Shown here: piece after piece, positions 219 through 21,162 of the stretch
Layout of the letters: each line of letters opens with the position of its first letter
Position numbering within the stretch: the first letter of the stretch is position 1
Virus record (IMG/VR): IMGVR_UViG_3300017913_002592
Span: 1-50,773 of that record
From: a virus
Taxonomy: Duplodnaviria; Caudoviricetes
Length of the DNA: 50,773 bases
Direction: 5' to 3' (one strand)
The notes under the pieces: generated by a model
What the model was told of the DNA's origin: nothing
Databases searched by the model: none
The model's input: the letters and a program-made list of their open reading frames with translations, nothing else
Translations under genes and position numbers: made by a program

Positions 219-439
219 TAGAGAGCCTCAGCTAACATTAGGCCCATTGTAACAACGAGACCGCCTAGAAAAAGAATTGCAGCACCTGCAGCATGAATTA
301 TCTTGCCTTCGATGCGTGCAAGAGTTTCGTCGATTTCTTCTAAACGATTGAATGTGGTTTTCCAACGCTCTTCGCACTGAGCATCGTGACTTGCCATAAA
401 TAGTTCAAGTTCATGAACCTTATCTTCAATTTTCTCCAT
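218..439 (-). CDS. Small coiled-coil protein with C-terminal TM helix (XhlA/holin-like)
   Basis: 73 aa; heptad-like N-half, hydrophobic AAGAAILFLGGLVVTMGLML. Confidence 0.55.
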   Translation of the reverse strand: MEKIEDKVHELELFMASHDAQCEERWKTTFNRLEEIDETLARIEGKIIHAAGAAILFLGGLVVTMGLMLAEAL

Positions 440-887
440 TTAGCAATTTGTCCATCAACTTTCCATAGTTGCCTTGGCCAAATGGAAGGCTACCATCATT
501 TATTTGCACATTATTTTGAGTGCGAATATTGGTAGTTGCTTTTTCAGCATCCGCCTGGGCCTTGATCTCATCCATTCTCATCTTATGAGCCATTTGCAAC
601 AGGTCTGCCAAATCTTTATTTGAGTACATTCCTGTTTCTTGAGCTTCTTCGAGTTTGGATGCAATTATCTCATCTAAGGCCGCGGCAATATTATTTTTAT
701 TGCGAAAACCCATGTCAAGATAAACTGTGTCTATATACTTTTTAACTTCTCGCTTATTTAGAGCTTCTACAACCCTGTCCTCTGAAACTTGGAGATGCTG
801 GCAAACGCCGCGAATATTCCCGAACTGCAAATATGAATTTGCAATTTCAAGTCCCTCTGGAGAAATTGTAGTTACTTCTTTACTCAT
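426..887 (-). CDS. terS: Terminase small subunit, T5-like
   Basis: SPEGLEIANSYLQFG...EVKKYIDTVYLDMGFRN...KLEEAQETGM...AHKMRMDE resembles the T5 small terminase as recalled. Confidence 0.8.
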   Translation of the reverse strand: MSKEVTTISPEGLEIANSYLQFGNIRGVCQHLQVSEDRVVEALNKREVKKYIDTVYLDMGFRNKNNIAAALDEIIASKLEEAQETGMYSNKDLADLLQMAHKMRMDEIKAQADAEKATTNIRTQNNVQINDGSLPFGQGNYGKLMDKLLNGEN

Positions 888-9023: not shown

Positions 9024-9914
9024 CTATCGCTTGAATTGGGATTGTACCAATTCGTTATGTAGTTTATCTTGAGCATAGCTCATTCGTCTCCCCCTACTCG
9101 ACCGAACTAGTGAACGAACAATAGTTCTATTATCTTTCAGAGTTATAGTCTCTTCGTACTTTGTTGTAGGTAGTGGTGCTGTGTAAGAACTAGGTAAAAC
9201 ATTCATAGCATCTAACGCAGCTGCTGCGGCATTGTCCGAAGCTGCAAGAGCAGACTCTACCCCAATTCCCAACATCTCTTCGAGAGACTCTGTTTCTGGA
9301 TCGTTTTCTCCGTCCTCTTTAACGCGCTCACGATCTTCTTGTTCTTCTTCCTCGTCCGCCATTACTGCTTTGCGGTCGATTTCATCTTGTATATAATCTT
9401 CATCAAGTGGATCTGCTACATCCGGTATTTCAGGGATCGGAGGTATGAATCCTTCACAGTCTGGAGAGGACTGTGGATTGAAGCAGGGGTCGAAACGAAA
9501 ACTATATAAAACGGTTGCGTCTGTTACAGAGCCATCGCCGTCTACTTCAATTGAACCGTCTCCAAAACGATTTCCTAAAATATTTTGCAGCGGAATACTT
9601 TTTACAATTGTATTTGGAGGTAATCCACTCCAATCATCTGCAGATCGAAATATGTATTCTCCGGGATTTTGTGCATCTTCATTTTGCACATATACCCACA
9701 TATCATCTTCTATATTCTTCACTGTTGTATAGCGGTAAAACACATTTGTAACTTCCAGCCCCATCTGCTGAGGCAGTACGTTAGTCATTACCCAATTATA
9801 CCCGTCTGATGCCGCATTGAGCGACTGTCCAAAAACTATATCAGAGGAGTAAGAGAAGGGCGAGTAAAGCAGCAATACCGCCGCCAGCAGCCATCGTTTG
9901 TTTCTCTGTATCAT
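9024..9914 (-). CDS. Secreted acidic protein
   Basis: Likely start MIQRNKRWLLAAVLLLYSPFSYS; DPCFNPQSSPDC motif; Glu/Asp-rich stalk. Confidence 0.7.
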   Translation of the reverse strand: MIQRNKRWLLAAVLLLYSPFSYSSDIVFGQSLNAASDGYNWVMTNVLPQQMGLEVTNVFYRYTTVKNIEDDMWVYVQNEDAQNPGEYIFRSADDWSGLPPNTIVKSIPLQNILGNRFGDGSIEVDGDGSVTDATVLYSFRFDPCFNPQSSPDCEGFIPPIPEIPDVADPLDEDYIQDEIDRKAVMADEEEEQEDRERVKEDGENDPETESLEEMLGIGVESALAASDNAAAAALDAMNVLPSSYTAPLPTTKYEETITLKDNRTIVRSLVRSSRGRRMSYAQDKLHNELVQSQFKR

Positions 9915-10428
9915 TTGCAAACTCTTCTTCCGCAGACTTCTCTGCAGGCGCTTCGCCATTGTCTATTGCCCATCCTGCTTTTGCTTCTTCTCCAATCATT
10001 CCATTATATGGGCAAGGTGTTCCAGCATGCATCATTGCATCAAAAACTCTTTCGTCTTGACACATCATAGATACGGCAGCAACTTTCATGCCCATATCAT
10101 AAAGTGTCTTTGCGTTTTTGAGTCTTTCGCAATTTTCATCAGTAAACTGCGTACCGGTCGAGATTCCAAGAATCTGAGTTTGAATCGCACCTGCTACTCC
10201 AAATGTACACAAGTCGGAGTTCGAGGTGTTAATCGTGGGAGATATTGCTGAAGGAGGGGGAGACTTTAGAGTTGTTGTAGTATTACCATTCGTAGTGATA
10301 GTGCTATCCGTAGTGCTTTCAGTACGAATTACTTCTTGCGCATTCGCTTCGGCTAGAAAAAGGCCAAAAAATATAATTATTATGCCTATAACTAAGCTTC
10401 TAATCAGACTTGCATCCAAGTTATCCAT
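9841..10428 (-). CDS. Exported Cys-containing protein with C-terminal Gly-Gly hydrophobic tail
   Basis: N-terminal signal/TM, Thr-rich linker, four Cys, ends AAGGGIAALLALLLLL. Confidence 0.75.
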   Translation of the reverse strand: MDNLDASLIRSLVIGIIIIFFGLFLAEANAQEVIRTESTTDSTITTNGNTTTTLKSPPPSAISPTINTSNSDLCTFGVAGAIQTQILGISTGTQFTDENCERLKNAKTLYDMGMKVAAVSMMCQDERVFDAMMHAGTPCPYNGMIGEEAKAGWAIDNGEAPAEKSAEEEFANDTEKQTMAAGGGIAALLALLLLL

Positions 10429-10495
10429 TTTTTAAGTTTTGGTAGTTTCCTACGCTTAGGTGAAAAAATCCTCCTTAGGTATTTTTTATGAATAA

Positions 10496-10524
10496 ATTAT
10501 ACCGAGCTTGGAGTCAAATGTCAA
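10496..10524 (-). promoter_or_regulatory. Consensus sigma70 promoter of the secreted-protein operon
   Basis: TTGACA-17-TATAAT on the minus strand. Confidence 0.8.
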
Positions 10525-10599
10525 GAAATTTTTTTAAGCACCCTTTCGGATTTGACAAAAATACACAAGTTGTACGTGAGGGGTAGCGCGCGCGAACCA

Positions 10600-10850: not shown

Positions 10851-10879
10851 TTTACTTTCTTGGGACATTCTGGGATAAT
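10851..10879 (+). promoter_or_regulatory. Putative promoter for the A2-like operon (TTTACT-17-GATAAT)
   Basis: Correct spacing; TG upstream of the -10. Confidence 0.55.
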
Positions 10880-10931
10880 CTTTTCATCGGTTAGGGGATG
10901 GGCCTCTGCCGAAAACACTAAGGAGGGCATT

Positions 10932-11243
10932 ATGCCTTACACTGAAAAGCAGGTTGCGGCACTGCAAAACGCCGCAAAGCAGCACGGTACGCTCAATGGG
11001 GAGCTTGCCGCCAAACTCGCAGCCGATCTCGGTCAGTCCAAGCGCAGCGTGATCGCAAAAATCAAGTCGCTGGATCTGCCCTACGCTGTAGCGGCAAAGC
11101 CCGTCAAGGGGACTCGCTCCACTAGCAAGGCCGAATATGTCGCGGCCATTGCCAAGGCACTTGACGCGGATGCGTCTACCCTTGCGGGTTTGGAGAAAGC
11201 TACCGCGCTTTCCCTTTCTGGCTTGTTGCAGGCGATCCGATGA
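10932..11243 (+). CDS. A2: T5 A2-like DNA-binding protein (copy 1)
   Basis: AAGGAGG SD; RSVIAKI...Y...KPVKG..SKAEYVAAIAK...LAGLEKA matches the recalled A2 pattern. Confidence 0.7.
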   Translation: MPYTEKQVAALQNAAKQHGTLNGELAAKLAADLGQSKRSVIAKIKSLDLPYAVAAKPVKGTRSTSKAEYVAAIAKALDADASTLAGLEKATALSLSGLLQAIR

Positions 11244-12623: not shown

Positions 12624-12788
12624 GACCTGGGCCACGTCGCTACCTGCCTCCGGCCAGGCCGCGCTAAATTCGCTTGACATGGTGATTTTGGCGCGGCCGC
12701 GCCAGTAGTAGTACGACGACGATTTCTTTTGGTGGTACCTGGACGGGTGTGACCAAATTTGTGCGAATTGCTTAGTCTTTTTTAAGCT

Positions 12789-13115
12789 GCGCCGATTATA
12801 GTACAGTACCGATGCGATGTCAAGTGTTTTTTGCGGGTGCGGACCAAATTATTTTAATTTGTCTTGGTCTTGTAAAAGCGCCGCGCCGATTATACAGTAG
12901 TACGCCGACGATGTCAAGTACTTTTTGCACAATTCCCCAAAATAATTTGACGCGCAAGTCTCTCTTAGACCCCGTGCCCAACCCTGGTATTATATCATAA
13001 CCCAGGCGGGGTTGTCAAGGGTTTTTTCGATTCGGCCTGGAATTTGCGCCAAGTTATTCGACCCCGAGGCGGCGCCGATTATACAGTAGTATTGCGACGA
13101 TGTCAAGTACTTTTT
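12789..13115 (-). repeat. Array of four leftward consensus sigma70 promoters, three embedded in ~45-bp direct repeats
   Basis: -10/-35 at 12795/12823, 12889/12917, 12989/13018, 13078/13106; shared gcgccgattata...cgatgtcaagt. Confidence 0.85.
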
Positions 13116-13282
13116 GGGGTAATTCTGCATAATTTTAGAAGTAGAAGTCTGTGCGGGGTTGTGGTAAGATAAATTACGAAAATTTTGGACAATTGGAGAA
13201 AATAATTCTTGACACGCCGAGGTCGTGTGCGGCCCCCCGGAATTCGTTTGCGTTAACCTGGCGACCAATCCGGAAAAAGTTC

Positions 13283-14038: not shown

Positions 14039-14365
14039 ATGTCTGAAGCTACTAAAGTTGTAAACTACACTGACGAAATGGTTGATGCTATCGTTGCTGA
14101 GTACGAAGCTGCCCCAGTTCGTGACACTGTTGACGCGCTGGCTGAGCGTTTCGGCAAGACCCCTCGCTCTATCATCGCTAAGCTGTCTACGCTTGGTATC
14201 TACAAGGCTCCTGCTCGTGTCACTAAGACTGGCAAGCCCGTAGTTAAGAAGGAAGCTCTGGTCGCTGAGATCGTTGCTGCCGTCGGTGTTGAACTGCCTT
14301 CCCTAGTCAAGGCTAACAAGCAAGACTTGGAAGCACTCGTTGCAGCTCTTGGCTCTAGCAGCTAA
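14039..14365 (+). CDS. A2-like DNA-binding protein (copy 2)
   Basis: NYTDEM...RSIIAKLS.LGIY...KEALVAEI...SLVKA; codon bias of a highly expressed gene. Confidence 0.7.
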   Translation: MSEATKVVNYTDEMVDAIVAEYEAAPVRDTVDALAERFGKTPRSIIAKLSTLGIYKAPARVTKTGKPVVKKEALVAEIVAAVGVELPSLVKANKQDLEALVAALGSSS

Positions 14366-15143: not shown

Positions 15144-15173
15144 TTGACTTTTTGTGGTTTTTCAAAGTATAAT
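15144..15173 (+). promoter_or_regulatory. Strong promoter of the ncRNA locus (TTGACT-18-TATAAT)
   Basis: Preceded by the phage motif AAAAATAGTTC. Confidence 0.8.
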
Positions 15174-15179
15174 ATCTTT

Positions 15180-15654
15180 TCAAATTTGGGGAAGCCAAGG
15201 ACGCTTAAAGCGCACATCGCTCGCGATAAGGCAGTAAAGATCCCGGTGAAAGTTGACTAGCCTATCCGGAGCCCCAACCCTTATTCTTGCAAGCCGTCAT
15301 GCTTGCATAAGCCCTCAGTAGCTATGAGGTGTGGTAATAGCTCAGCACCACAATAATCAAACTGCGGCTAGTTAGTGTAGTAACTATATACTCACCCGGA
15401 TGGAGCAAGCGGTATATTGTATCCTCCAGTATTCTTTTAATGGCAGTTGTTTACTGGGTCATCAAAAAACAAAAGCGGTCGTTGCGGAACTCATGAGACG
15501 TAACGAGGTATGACAGAGGCAGGAGCATACCATTTTCAAGTGTTATAAGAAATAGGGTCTACCTACTTAGACCCGCGAAGGAAGTAGGGGGTTGGTAAAC
15601 CAATAAAACTACCCTCAAATGGTCGGAGAGTTAACTGCTCTTCGGCCATTTTTT
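15180..15654 (+). ncRNA. Candidate ~470-nt structured non-coding RNA
   Basis: Own promoter and terminator, no credible ORF, more than ten hairpins and at least two potential pseudoknots. Confidence 0.65.
15617..15654 (+). terminator. Intrinsic terminator
   Basis: aaatggtcggagag/ctcttcggccattt stem plus T-tract. Confidence 0.85.
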
Positions 15655-15675
15655 ATGCGTGATTGAAAATAATTC

Positions 15676-15704
15676 TTGACATTTTTCTCAAAGTATGAGA
15701 GAAT
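15676..15704 (+). promoter_or_regulatory. Promoter (TTGACA-17-GAGAAT, extended TG)
   Basis: Same AAAATAATTC upstream motif as other phage promoters. Confidence 0.65.
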
Positions 15705-16127: not shown

Positions 16128-16436
16128 GTGAATTATACAAAAGATCAAACTGAGTATATGATCGAGCGGTACAAAACCAATCCATCAAGGAATACGGTAG
16201 AGGAGCTAGCAGATGAATTCAGTAAAAGTGTTAAATCAGTCATTGGCAAACTATCACGCGAAGGCGTGTATCGCCGCGAGGTCTATAAGACTAAGGCTGG
16301 CGAGAACCCTATTACTAAAGTGGAGATTGTTGAAAGTATTGCCGAATGTTTGGGACTTGAGAGTGAGTCTCTGGCTGGTCTCGAGAAAGCTCCAAAAGCA
16401 ACTCTCAAAACAATCGAGAAAGTCCTATCAGAGTGA
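16128..16436 (+). CDS. A2-like DNA-binding protein (copy 3)
   Basis: NYTKDQ...KSVIGKLSREGVY...TKVEIVESIA...LAGLEKA. Confidence 0.7.
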   Translation: MNYTKDQTEYMIERYKTNPSRNTVEELADEFSKSVKSVIGKLSREGVYRREVYKTKAGENPITKVEIVESIAECLGLESESLAGLEKAPKATLKTIEKVLSE

Positions 16437-16600
16437 AAAAGTGGTGGAGAATCTGGGCAAGGAGCCTGGGAGAAAAAGTAAGTAACTCTGCAACGGAGAG
16501 TGATGTGGTGGCGGGCATTAGAACGTTCTGGTGGCTGCTACACGTCATTACTTGCTTCTTTATTATAGCAGGAAATGCTAAATCCCTAGGACTCTGGTAA
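16433..16600 (+). CDS. Small membrane protein
   Basis: GTGA coupling; MKKWWRIWARSLGEK...IRTFWWLLHVITCFFIIAG. Confidence 0.7.
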   Translation: MKKWWRIWARSLGEKVSNSATESDVVAGIRTFWWLLHVITCFFIIAGNAKSLGLW

Positions 16601-16606
16601 TCCTTA

Positions 16607-16626
16607 ACAGGGGTCTCAACGGGGTC
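16607..16626 (+). repeat. 20-bp motif ACAGGGGTCTCAACGGGGTC, exact copy at 20350-20369
   Basis: Direct comparison; related tandem at 42665-42688. Confidence 0.85.
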
Positions 16627-16700
16627 ATAGCAAATAGCAATATAGCAAATCTATTGAACTCTAGAAAAATTCTATTCAACTCTAGAAAAATTCTATCAAA
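16627..16700 (+). repeat. Iteron-like tandem repeats
   Basis: ATAGCAA x3, then 21-bp CTATT(G/C)AACTCTAGAAAAATT x2 plus a partial copy. Confidence 0.8.
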
Positions 16701-16849
16701 ACCATCAGCCCTAACGACAAATTTCCCAAAATCATTAAAAACCCATTAAAGTAGTTATTTTACGATTAAAAGCGGTTCATTCGAAATTGGGCCACGTTGA
16801 GTTGATTATTAAAAGACGAATTTTTAGTACGAATTAGAGGAAAGTTGAG

Positions 16850-17101
16850 GCGGGATCGTTAATGAGTTATTTGATTAACGGGGTCATTAACGATTGGTCG
16901 TAAGTGACACATAATTTGTACGATATTAGAATGAATCGTAGCGTGGTTATCGCTGACTTCTACATATCTTGCAGATATCCCGTGTAACCCAACGCCTTCG
17001 GCTTTAATGCTCCGGCGTTGGTTATGCACACAATAGCTGCATTATGTTTTGTCAGCATCTAGTTAGTGAGAAAAGCGATTGACCTCATTGCTTAACAATT
17101 A
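16850..17101 (-). ncRNA. Candidate leftward structured RNA / origin primer
   Basis: Minus-strand promoter TTTACT-17-TAAAAT (17136-17108); ~105-nt bulged rod 16952-17056; perfect 11-bp inverted repeat 16855-16894. Confidence 0.45.
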
Positions 17102-17236
17102 GTATATATTTTATCACACATTTTGGCATAAGTAAAGTATCTTTTTTGCCTAGGTCATCGAATAGTATTTATTAAAAAAGTTTTAGGAAACAAAAAAATA
17201 TTCTACCATTCCAGGGTAGCATTATGAAAAAACTTC

Positions 17237-18815: not shown

Positions 18816-20435
18816 TTAGAACAAACAAATATCTTGTTCTTCTAGTTCTAGTTCTACTGGAGTAGAGAATTGAATACCGTGCTCCATTTCATGTAACTGA
18901 CTGATTATCCAACGAGTACGAAGTATACTTTCTGCATTATTTGTAGGAGGGGGTCGCTGCTCTATAGGTTCTAAACAGAAACATCCACCCACCGTCCCAA
19001 GGCGTACAGACTGGCCAGTTTCCGGTATTTCACATCGTGCGTTGTAATCCGAAAATCTTCCTGTGGGTAAGTCTGCATACGACATGATGCTTCCGTATCC
19101 TCCCCACAATCCTTCGTAGTTTTCGTTGTCTGACTGGGGGTTATAGCCTGATAAGTTATACCCGAATGAGTATTCAAAGATACCAGGTTGATTCGCGTCT
19201 CTGTACTCATGTTGTGCCCCTAGTAGGTGACCTACTTCATGTGCAAATGTTTCATGTGCACGTTGGTAATATCTCGTAGTTGCATTCTCTTGGAAAGTGC
19301 TATTATGAAAACACTGAGTAATTCCTCTTGTTTTATCAATTCCTCGTGTTGCATCTAAGTTTGCAACTCCACAAGCAATAGGCTCTTCTGGCTTCTTCTT
19401 AAATAGAAAAGCTAAATCTGCTTCAGCTTCTCTTTGCCAATCATCTAATCCAGTAAATTCATATCTAGCATTAAAAAATGCAGCATATTGTCTGTATAAA
19501 TCTCCTGGAGCTACATCTACCATTTTGATACCCGCCACTCTAACCAAGGTATAAGTACCCGATAGCATATACATATGGTTTAATTCAAATACTTGCTTAT
19601 TTACAAACTCTTCAACTGTCATACCATCACGATCTTCCTCAGTAATATTTGTATCGAACACAATAAGCATATCTATGATAGCTCTTCCTGCGTGTTCTTC
19701 TCGAGGTTGATACGGAAAACTAACAGGGGTTCTTTGTTTTACACCATCACAGGTCATGTAATCATATCTAGAATCCCCAGTATCGGTTCTAGTAGTTGGG
19801 CACTCCTGGGGTATGGTCATTTGCGTAAAACAAGTTTGATCTAGGTGCACAGTACGTTCAGTATATGTACCACCCTCCCCATCTGCATAGTCCTGTAACC
19901 TATCTTCGGGCAGTAGGTGATTTATAGCTTCAAAATGAGAATCGTATTCTTCTGGCGTGAGTGTATCAGCACAGTATGCTTCGCCTAGAGCAGTGCCTTC
20001 TTCAGGATACGGTCTCCAACCACAGTCTTCTGAATTAGTTTCTACTATCTCGGTATACTCCCCGCCTTCACCGTCAGCAAAGTCTTGAACCTTATCAAAG
20101 TCGTCCAGGTTATTTAAAGTATTAAGTAGATTTAAAAATTGGCCCTGAGTAGCATTTGCACAATATGGATCGTTGAGAGGGGTGCTAAAGACAGGAGGGG
20201 GCTCATAGCCACACTGCTCGGAAGGATCCTCTACTGTTTCAGTGTAGGTTCCACCACTGCCATTGTGGTAGTTTTGAAGAAGGGCATATCCATCGCAGTA
20301 GGTAGCACCATCAGTGGTGCCAGATGCAGGATAAGAGGAGGTAGCTGTTACAGGGGTCTCAACGGGGTCGGAAGATCCTCCCCCGCTGCACGCAGTTAAT
20401 ACTAGAAAGGGTAGTGCTCTATAAAATATCTTCAA
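18816..20435 (-). CDS. Lipoprotein metzincin (reprolysin/M12B-like) metalloprotease
   Basis: Lipobox LVLTA-C, HEVGHLLGAQH zinc motif, SIMSY Met-turn, three Cys-containing N-terminal repeats. Confidence 0.8.
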   Translation of the reverse strand: MKIFYRALPFLVLTACSGGGSSDPVETPVTATSSYPASGTTDGATYCDGYALLQNYHNGSGGTYTETVEDPSEQCGYEPPPVFSTPLNDPYCANATQGQFLNLLNTLNNLDDFDKVQDFADGEGGEYTEIVETNSEDCGWRPYPEEGTALGEAYCADTLTPEEYDSHFEAINHLLPEDRLQDYADGEGGTYTERTVHLDQTCFTQMTIPQECPTTRTDTGDSRYDYMTCDGVKQRTPVSFPYQPREEHAGRAIIDMLIVFDTNITEEDRDGMTVEEFVNKQVFELNHMYMLSGTYTLVRVAGIKMVDVAPGDLYRQYAAFFNARYEFTGLDDWQREAEADLAFLFKKKPEEPIACGVANLDATRGIDKTRGITQCFHNSTFQENATTRYYQRAHETFAHEVGHLLGAQHEYRDANQPGIFEYSFGYNLSGYNPQSDNENYEGLWGGYGSIMSYADLPTGRFSDYNARCEIPETGQSVRLGTVGGCFCLEPIEQRPPPTNNAESILRTRWIISQLHEMEHGIQFSTPVELELEEQDICLF

Positions 20436-20595: not shown

Positions 20596-20975
20596 ACACC
20601 CAAGATATCACTAAAGTCTGGAGCAAAAAAGTTCTCACTCTTCATTACTTTACCATCTTCACGATAAATTGCTTTACCGTCCGGACCGAGTTTACTCATA
20701 TTACTTTCATGCACTTCGAGGAAGCACTCATTCAAGTCAATACCAAACGCGTGGCCTGCACCGTATATGACATACAAAAGATCGGTCAGAGCGTCTGCGA
20801 CCTCAACCATATCTTTATTCTCAATCGCTTCTTCCAATTCTTCGTACTCTTCACGAATCAGTTCCAAGCGTAGTTCTCTTGTGGAGAAGTCAGGCCAATG
20901 GGGGTCACAATGGACCTCTTGTCCAAAACCTTCCATAAAATCTCCTACAAGTTCGAAATTACTTACACTTGCCAT
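20592..20975 (-). CDS. MazG-like all-alpha NTP pyrophosphohydrolase
   Basis: LIREEYEELEEA...EVADALTDLLYV.YG...EVHESNMSK...DGKVMK. Confidence 0.85.
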   Translation of the reverse strand: MASVSNFELVGDFMEGFGQEVHCDPHWPDFSTRELRLELIREEYEELEEAIENKDMVEVADALTDLLYVIYGAGHAFGIDLNECFLEVHESNMSKLGPDGKAIYREDGKVMKSENFFAPDFSDILGV

Positions 20976-21162
20976 GCTTTGTTTGCTCCTTTTGCATACG
21001 CCGACGTTCTCGTTGTTTCGCGGCTTTCTTGGCTTTATGCCTTCGCACTGCGGGTTTTTCAAAGTATTCACGCTCACGATATTCAAAAACTACATCGCTG
21101 CACTTCTTTTTGAAAACTCTCAGTGCTTTGTCAACATTATTATTTCTAACTCTTACTTTCAT
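20959..21162 (-). CDS. rpsU: Ribosomal protein bS21
   Basis: VRNNNVDKALRVFKKK...REREYFEKPAVRR..KKAA..R. Confidence 0.9.
   Translation of the reverse strand: MKVRVRNNNVDKALRVFKKKCSDVVFEYREREYFEKPAVRRHKAKKAAKQRERRRMQKEQTKHGKCK

Follow-up and report, generated by a model that had tools for sequence, protein, structure and literature searches.

A modular array of small structured RNAs in an uncultured T5-like marine phage and its relatives

RNA gene clusters of large lytic phages, such as the tRNA regions of T4 and T5, give rise to abundant and stable small RNAs whose function is not established. Several described systems come close to the locus presented here. ROOL, GOLLD, and OLE are large, pseudoknot-rich, and abundant RNAs, of which ROOL and GOLLD are phage-borne and often located near tRNA islands; in OLE and GOLLD, loops switch between palindromes, and such a palindromic loop together with adjacent covarying columns marks an intermolecular bridge (PMC12286853). 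In the aquatic cyanophage S-CREM1, three structured RNAs of unrelated families, wcaG, manA, and abiF, adjoin one another on the same strand at 9745-10567 (PMC9964418), and the abiF RNA antitoxin (RF03085) neutralizes its HEPN-like toxin in trans (10.1101/2025.04.15.648962). PhiTE pseudo-ToxI, ToxI, CptI, and TenpI are phage-made H-type pseudoknots of 35-50 nt with A-rich linkers that occur in series (PMC3594212, PMC12283969), with a precedent for phage pseudoknots as antitoxin mimics (PMC3594212). Finally, the ncRNA arrays of UG27 reverse transcriptases (RTs) consist of ~150-nt homologous phage units, including a pseudoknot, that are gained and lost and are tied to the RT and two more proteins (10.64898/2026.09.22.753630).

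In the linear, 50,773-nt record of an uncultured, T5-like marine virus (completeness estimate 52 %), the whole of which is hereafter called the window, we analyzed a stretch at 15180-15654 that an earlier note had described as a single pseudoknot-rich non-coding RNA of ~470 nt. This array is a string of ~10 small folded modules that are gained, lost, and swapped among related phages, and it represents a genuine, new family of modular RNAs among the large non-coding RNAs of phages. It shares with ROOL, GOLLD, and OLE its size, its wealth of pseudoknots, and its abundance, and with the latter two also a loop that switches between palindromes; unlike these, it is unmatched in Rfam, and its domains are exchanged and reordered across families without covarying inter-domain helices. 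The S-CREM1 cluster is made of other families, whereas the array is a closed promoter-terminator unit of uncatalogued modules. Pseudo-ToxI and type III antitoxins are tandem copies of one unit directed against one toxin, whereas the units of the array all differ, and in contrast to the UG27 units they are unrelated, measure 20-90 nt, and are accompanied by no RT that we could find. An orphan abiF copy stands beside the array of one relative, termed L118, and is absent from the window and from the arrays themselves. Unlike the stable RNAs of T4 and T5, the array is similar to no cultured phage record, and the window holds no tRNA gene. In its workings, the array corresponds to no proven system: neither a model match to ROOL, GOLLD, or manA, nor the tandem repeat of pseudo-ToxI, nor the RT of UG27 was found. 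More than 15 small, covarying, and uncatalogued RNA folds are thereby catalogued in one natural test bed. As the module borders have already been cut by evolution, the 20-90 nt units can be synthesized singly and assayed one by one, and the old question of the role that abundant, stable RNAs play in lytic phages is now testable.

Transcription unit and genomic setting

The window encodes a T5-like gene set (NAD ligase, D5-like regulator, and DNA polymerase), the best cultured matches of the polymerase (~43 %) lying among T5-like phages. A strand switch at ~10.5-10.8 kb opens a rightward block of small genes that holds the array. The landmarks are as follows:

426-887, minus strand: terminase small subunit
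10860-11243: third A2-like paralog (phrog_1725)
14039..14365, plus strand: gene of an A2-like DNA-binding protein (phrog_1725), upstream of the array (E 3.6e-4; synteny)
15144..15173, plus strand: sigma-70-type promoter of the array (11/12 consensus matches; predicted start ~15179-15180)
15619..15655, plus strand: intrinsic terminator, a 13-bp hairpin and six T (z -6.6)
15676..15704, plus strand: promoter of the next gene block (consensus scan)
16128..16436, plus strand: A2-like paralog (phrog_1725), downstream of the array (E 3.9e-5; synteny)

The strong promoter and the clear terminator that the earlier note had claimed are both present. Equivalent promoters stand ahead of all 44 complete arrays (see below), and at the position of the terminator, whose hairpin a simple terminator scan did not list, the relatives carry different hairpins with a T run. 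The promoter of the next block makes the array a separate transcription unit; it is kept behind 44/44 complete arrays, of which it served as the end marker. The proposed lack of a credible open reading frame likewise held: none of at least 50 aa lies inside the array, and the short ones have no start or stop in common with relatives. A hidden peptide was considered and rejected, the matches stemming solely from the DNA of module A without a common start.

The array is located between A2-like paralogs, ~4.5 kb from the strand switch that adjoins the terminase-side late block, and the three phrog_1725 paralogs of the window lie within 6 kb. For the product of 14039..14365, tblastn gave weak matches (E 0.2-0.7) to the "A2 protein" of T5-like Vibrio phages, and the gene at 16128..16436 found no match in cultured phages; one or both A2-like genes adjoin the array, by synteny, in most of 25 loci examined. 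Since A2 belongs to the genes that T5 transfers in the first step (10.1101/866236), the array region may be injected and transcribed first, a placement in the early region to which the weak A2 similarity points.

Folded modules and their exchange

As a single sequence, the array folds only marginally better than chance (z -1.88; 5/100 shuffles fold as well), and evidence beyond chance therefore comes from homologs. Through the flanking proteins, three syntenic relatives were found in which the 5′ domain is conserved and the remainder variable. A motif derived from this domain returned 16/20 true loci in IMG/VR and 58/59 in metagenomes, and a gapped pattern gave 74 matches, comprising 16 already known loci, ~40 chance matches, and 18 further loci (15 distinct contexts); the chance matches (4/20, 1/59, and ~40/74) were dropped before counting. 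The true motif loci amount to 61 distinct sequences with 44 complete promoter-to-terminator arrays of 330-687 nt, the count including the window and a 99.8 % identical relative. In the 18 further loci, module A is joined to other module sets and either occupies the 5′ or the 3′ end or follows other RNAs.

With simple patterns for 17 module types, 22 module orders were distinguished in the 44 complete arrays. Module A occurs in 44 of them by construction, the arrays having been found through it, followed by F and G (43 each), B (35), C (33), H (31), Z and the E-hairpin (17 each), I (16), K (15), J (13), M and Q (10 each), O (8), N (6), L (5), and B2 (3). Within the family, the order is fixed, and A, F, and G are almost always kept. 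Exchange is evident from module F, which differs by at least 25 % in 17/56 array pairs whose module A differs by at most 5 %; F and G more often move as a pair (distance correlation 0.84). The idea of one ~470-nt fold thus gives way to a chain of small modules exchanged between relatives. Internal repeats are lacking in the array, self-BLAST showing promoter look-alikes alone. In the window, the modules are:

15186..15277, plus strand: module A, branched domain (covariation, 40 sequences), with helices P1 15186-91/15272-77, P2 15194-96/15230-32, P3 15202-04/15223-25, and P4 15243-46/15266-69
15288..15307, plus strand: module K, hairpin whose loop holds an invariant CATG (z -3.8)
15313..15329, plus strand: module L, short hairpin with palindromic TAGCTA loop (covariation)
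15330..15370, plus strand: module P, hairpin TGTGGT/ACCACA (read from the sequence)
15369..15386, plus strand: module X, hairpin TAGTTA/TAACTA (in the sequence)
15386..15424, plus strand: module E, putative small H-type pseudoknot (from relatives)
15426..15476, plus strand: module F, H-type pseudoknot, CCAGT/ACTGG crossed by TTGTTT/AAACAA (covariation)
15479..15531, plus strand: module G, two abutting hairpins (43/44 complete arrays; loop columns)
15555..15588, plus strand: module J, classical H-type pseudoknot, GGGTCT/AGACCC, 1-nt loop, CCTACTT/AAGTAGG (covariation)
15590..15614, plus strand: module M, small hairpin or pseudoknot (10/44 complete arrays; 4 variants parsed)

All helices named in the earlier note were found in place, and compensatory changes back TTGGGG/CCCCAA, TGCAAGC/GCTTGCA, CCTC/GAGG, TCGTTGCG/CGTAACGA, and GGTATG/CATACC. 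Covariation, which it had suggested as a check, is present in module A (by RNAalifold and shuffles) and in F, J, K, and L. For module A, RNAalifold on 40 sequences recovered P1-P4 with 8/15 pairs compensatory. The domain additionally contains conserved A-rich joints and an invariant 2-bp GG/CC cross-pair (15199-200/15261-62), to which a third pair can be added that holds in 27/40 sequences. With this 3-bp cross-pair included, 97.6 % of the cells are paired, as compared to 83.7 % in shuffled (0/500 as high) and 30-47 % in slid alignments; the pair-type counts are not above those of shuffles. The middle pair of P2, left free on both sides by the search pattern, is concordant in 55/55 distinct copies. 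A GGA/TCC pseudoknot in module A was ruled out, as divergent homologs change TCC. G-U outnumbers A-C by 20:1 in the stems of A and by 9:0 in those of J and C, and the plus-strand RNA is therefore the selected molecule.

Compensatory stem changes were also found in module K (6 distinct variants in 20/76 arrays), and module L alternates between CCTC/GAGG and CTCC/GGAG (3 variants in 5/76 arrays). The loop AGCT of module P possibly pairs with GGCT behind an A-rich linker, which would close it into a pseudoknot; look-alikes in L024 and L060 were recognized by eye, as the pattern used there missed the window. No homolog of module X was found. Module E probably consists of ATATAC/GTATAT crossed by GGAT/ATCC, in a register before CCAG that matches covarying small pseudoknots of relatives. 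The crossing pair TGGAG/CTCCA proposed earlier for this site is probably wrong, as it overlaps the conserved stem CCAG/CTGG of module F; its last G is changed in the 99.8 % identical relative, and homologous modules favor GGAT/ATCC.

In module F, a U-rich loop faces an A-rich tail, and a Watson-Crick loop-tail helix of 4-7 bp is formed in 33/33 distinct variants parsed (11 different sequences), likely as part of a triple helix. Module G carries the palindrome CTCATGAG in its loop 1 (15490-15497) and a purine-rich loop 2. The pseudoknot at 15555-15588 (module J) withstood scrutiny in that both sides of both stems undergo compensatory changes (12 variants in 15/76 arrays); it is better drawn with stems of 6 and 7 bp and a 1-nt loop between them, since the seventh A-T pair of the proposed GGGTCTA/TAGACCC is A-C in 6/12 variants. 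In IMG/VR, module J is confined to this clade. In module M, GGTA would pair with TACC behind an A-rich linker. The description as pseudoknot-rich was apt, yet it had overlooked two more pseudoknots (F and the putative one of M). The compact H-type pseudoknot with A-rich linker, a trait of type III antitoxins, is found in F and J, with covariation in both.

Known families and expression

Rfam yielded no gathering-level match in the whole window and none up to E 10 within 15180-15654, ribozyme and riboswitch families included, and ARAGORN reported 0 genes, in agreement with the earlier statement that the RNA was not recognized as a tRNA, tmRNA, RNase P, or SRP RNA and may be new; the Rfam comparison that it had put forward thus matched no known family. 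In 12 homologous loci, no riboswitch family appeared up to E 10 and terminator-like matches only, and in further homologous loci the matches were neighboring tRNA, tmRNA, and abiF. The Rfam covariance models of ROOL, GOLLD, OLE, and manA, as well as those of riboswitch aptamers and self-cleaving ribozymes, found no match in the window or in homologous loci. In the window, the modules also matched no known antitoxins, CRISPR repeats, or other Rfam families, and the abiF model (RF03085) gave no above-gathering match. A likeness to Cas13 repeats, CsrA sites, the sarcin-ricin loop, ribozymes, or riboswitches was considered and set aside, as Rfam gives it no backing.

BLAST against cultured phages and plasmids returned chance matches only, and a pattern scan of 185,579 prokaryote genomes gave 5 matches, all by chance and none with module A context, three of which had a model score of 14-17 bits. 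No module was found beside a bacterial toxin gene in one genome scan and in plasmid and phage BLAST, and an RT gene (PF00078) is absent in 5/5 relatives, 2 of them at least 90 % complete. The modules matched nothing in the tables of PMC10690425 (Fremin et al. 2023), and single modules may be among the candidates in the 8,495 DNA-virus alignments of that work. A literature search, thin on subscription journals, returned no paper on the array RNA or on such a cassette.

Metagenomic and metatranscriptomic runs were searched with the relative L037 instead of the window's own variant, as its words are shared more widely than those of the window. Part of the L037 array is present in 20 runs of 7 studies, 10 of the runs being on record as RNA; four of these (X2, X3, X7, and X8), selected for holding the array, were examined. 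Contigs inside the L037 array reach a depth of 247 and 458 in X2 and X3, which are samples from a single study, whereas flanking contigs of the same phage (at least 99 % identity) stay at 2.4-8.8, so that the array is ~30-150 times deeper; X7 and X8 have a depth of 4-5 and no excess over the L037 array. For module A, the depth is 5 in X2, whereas X3 has no cover of it and its deep contig begins right behind module A, at array position 110; the cover in X2 also has a hole inside the array. These data are contigs, which carry no strand, no ends, and one depth each, and the low cover of module A is accordingly not read as an RNA end. The expectation that metatranscriptomes would contain the RNA is thus borne out for the array of a relative, whose RNA is abundant in some seawater samples, with an excess in only 2/4 runs.

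Possible functions of the array

Any functional reading starts from the established unit borders, covarying folds, plus-strand polarity, and module exchange, and from the high RNA-library depth of a relative. With a probability of roughly 45 %, and hence tentatively, we favor an early cassette of independently folding, putative RNA decoys against host RNA-binding defence proteins that also pair with themselves. Host RNA polymerase would synthesize one stable transcript from the strong sigma-70 promoter, presumably early, as part of the genome portion that matches the first-injected segment of T5. Each 20-90 nt module would fold alone and offer a ligand surface resembling known RNA antitoxins in size and type, i. 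e., H-type pseudoknots with A-rich linkers and hairpins with fixed loops. Palindromic loops could join the RNAs into two-fold dimers or larger clusters with higher avidity for dimeric targets, and the decoys would bind and neutralize host defence proteins, for example, RNA-inhibited toxins. The changing module set would then follow changing host defences, much like protein anti-defence islands.

This reading is suggested by the modularity, the helices within modules, the RNA depth, the early position, and the abiF RNA beside the L118 array; against it speak the absence of any antitoxin match or toxin-gene neighbor, the restriction of abiF to 1 relative, and X7 and X8 without excess. Moreover, the retention of A, F, and G, the fixed order, and the F-G correlation of 0.84 suit one integrated RNA and argue against decoys. 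Of the three functions that the earlier note had offered, the decoy thus has indirect support, whereas the ribozyme finds no family match. If the modules are decoys, RNA counter-defence would be a swappable arsenal instead of one mimic per phage, and the modules could serve as baits for new RNA-regulated defence systems.

The abiF clue comes from L118:990-1021, which scores 45.4 bits (gathering 37) with 32/32 consensus letters. In this relative, tRNA-Thr and tRNA-Met are followed by the abiF RNA, more hairpins, and the module-A array, with abiF 280 nt upstream of the array in a neighboring transcription unit outside it; the 14-kb fragment contains no Abi_2 gene, and among the relatives this is the only one with abiF beside the array. 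At least 120 viral loci with an abiF core were found (L193-L312; ~370 estimated), 80 of which had flanks and represent 67 distinct contexts. In these contexts, 0/45 nearby same-strand downstream ORFs of at least 150 aa are Abi_2, and 22 of the 67 have no same-strand ORF of at least 150 aa nearby; tRNA genes lie near abiF in at least 18/80 loci. Orphan abiF antitoxin RNAs are common in phages, often among tRNA genes. Together with the S-CREM1 cluster, these data indicate that phage RNA clusters collect at least one orphan antitoxin RNA, and the modules of the window may be of the same kind. Look-alikes of abiF also occur in cultured phages, e. g., Acinetobacter phage Acj61 and mycobacteriophages, in which the decoy idea is directly testable.

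A bolder version, which we deem unlikely, envisages an RNA-only anti-defence island of first-injected, recombining, unrelated decoys, each against a different host defence protein, that would self-assemble by kissing loops into a multivalent particle; if it were true, each module would report a new RNA-regulated bacterial defence system.

A self-assembling scaffold of the ROOL, GOLLD, OLE, or manA kind, with A, F, and G as core, further modules as optional domains, and a kissing-loop cage or condensate as product, is the main rival; it is likewise rather unlikely and draws on the evidence for self-pairing. The palindromes of the G loop alternate between TGCA, CGCG, and CATG: in loop 1, the two columns at the center read GC in 33 arrays and AT in 9, those flanking them TA in 26 and CG in 16, both column pairs are complementary in 42/42 arrays, and they switch together. 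As adjacent bases cannot pair within one chain, this switching points to pairing between molecules, and the array RNA is predicted to pair with its own copies via palindromic loops, of which L, K, and the H module of relatives carry further ones. A palindrome count on MFE loops mis-picked some loops, and aligned columns were used instead. Pairing of G loop 1 with loop 2 is possible in some variants and was discarded as a general feature. The RNA is furthermore phage-borne and abundant, some relatives have tRNA or tmRNA genes close to it, and short RNAs such as manA form cages (10.64898/2026.07.01.735769).

On the other hand, the array matches none of the Rfam models of ROOL, GOLLD, OLE, and manA, module A changes position and occurs without F and G, the length varies twofold, and no convincing covarying helix connects the modules, in a test to which non-Watson-Crick contacts are invisible. 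Among A, F, and G of 42 arrays, seven stacked covarying helices lie within modules and one between them, the latter judged spurious and not pairing in the window, so that the long-range covarying helices of one integrated fold were not found for these three modules. The 54 inter-module "pairs" of a loose column scan were mostly G-U noise, of which the strict stacked test left 1. This amounts to a weak negative, as the test considers Watson-Crick helices only and missed the F pseudoknot through alignment shifts. Self-assembly and decoy function are not exclusive, and if the modules are assembly units, nature would offer in them short building blocks from which RNA cages or condensates can be made.

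A role of the modules as orphan aptamers that sequester small molecules, be they immune signals, alarmones, or cofactors, and thereby form an RNA counterpart of phage sponge proteins, appears improbable. In modules A and C, short stems are indeed surrounded by many unpaired bases that do not vary, as in ligand pockets, module A may resemble the T-loop and receptor pairs of known riboswitches, and related phages contain glutamine aptamers; however, no riboswitch family was matched up to E 10 in the array region or in 12 homologous loci, and one ligand per RNA would be a weak sink for most metabolites. A role in RNA handling, with A as self-cleaving or processing element and pseudoknots that block exonucleases and stabilize the inner RNA, is quite improbable: the low or absent cover of A in X2 and X3 and the deep X3 contig starting behind it would fit, but contig ends are not RNA ends, X2 has its hole inside the array, ribozyme families are unmatched, and there is no constant cargo to protect. 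A cis-acting DNA element akin to the repeats of the T5 terminal repeat or its injection-stop signal, or a selfish element from which the phage gains nothing, is very improbable, since the location among A2-like genes and the untranslated, palindrome-rich regions near the A2 gene of T5 (10.1101/866236) are outweighed by the G-U polarity, the pseudoknots, the own promoter and terminator, and the RNA-library depth, all of which point to RNA, and by the lack of RT in the five relatives.

Several further observations concern the surroundings of the array. Downstream of it, 16600-17230 is AT-rich and ORF-poor, contains a tandem repeat of 21 nt as well as an inverted repeat of 11 bp, and could be the counterpart of the T5 injection-stop region. 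At 12780-13120, a 48-nt leftward sigma-70 promoter cassette occurs three times (spacing 94 and 189), none of the copies being followed by a credible ORF, and relatives have comparable clusters. On the opposite strand inside the early block, 18816-20435 (minus) encodes a lipoprotein-like ORF of 539 aa with a reprolysin-like metallopeptidase domain. A gene for ribosomal protein S21 (PF01165) lies at 20959-21162 (minus); S21 has been proposed as a binding partner of OLE RNA (PMC12286853), and a link to the array is conceivable.

Neither a tmRNA gene nor a tRNA gene is present in the window, and the complete relative G001 likewise has no tRNA gene. Permuted two-piece tmRNA genes lie near the array in L192 (1257-1710), L109, L117, L125, L150, and L160, and module A of L120 is directly preceded, at L120:1000-1300, by a tRNA-like element that ends in CCA and that neither ARAGORN nor Rfam detected. 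More distant T5-like marine relatives contain ORF-poor promoter-terminator stretches of ~850-950 nt with other modules. This second array family (L017:845-1790, L018:1360-2185, L183, L185, L019:1370-1800, and L021:330-890) features a repeated AGTAGTAAA motif, and the module profiles found no match in L017 and L018. Lastly, glnA (glutamine) riboswitch aptamers stand ahead of a small ORF in related phages (L009:7315-7365, plus strand; L012:5275-5389, L013, L014, and L015, minus strand), four of them with a 65-nt insertion.
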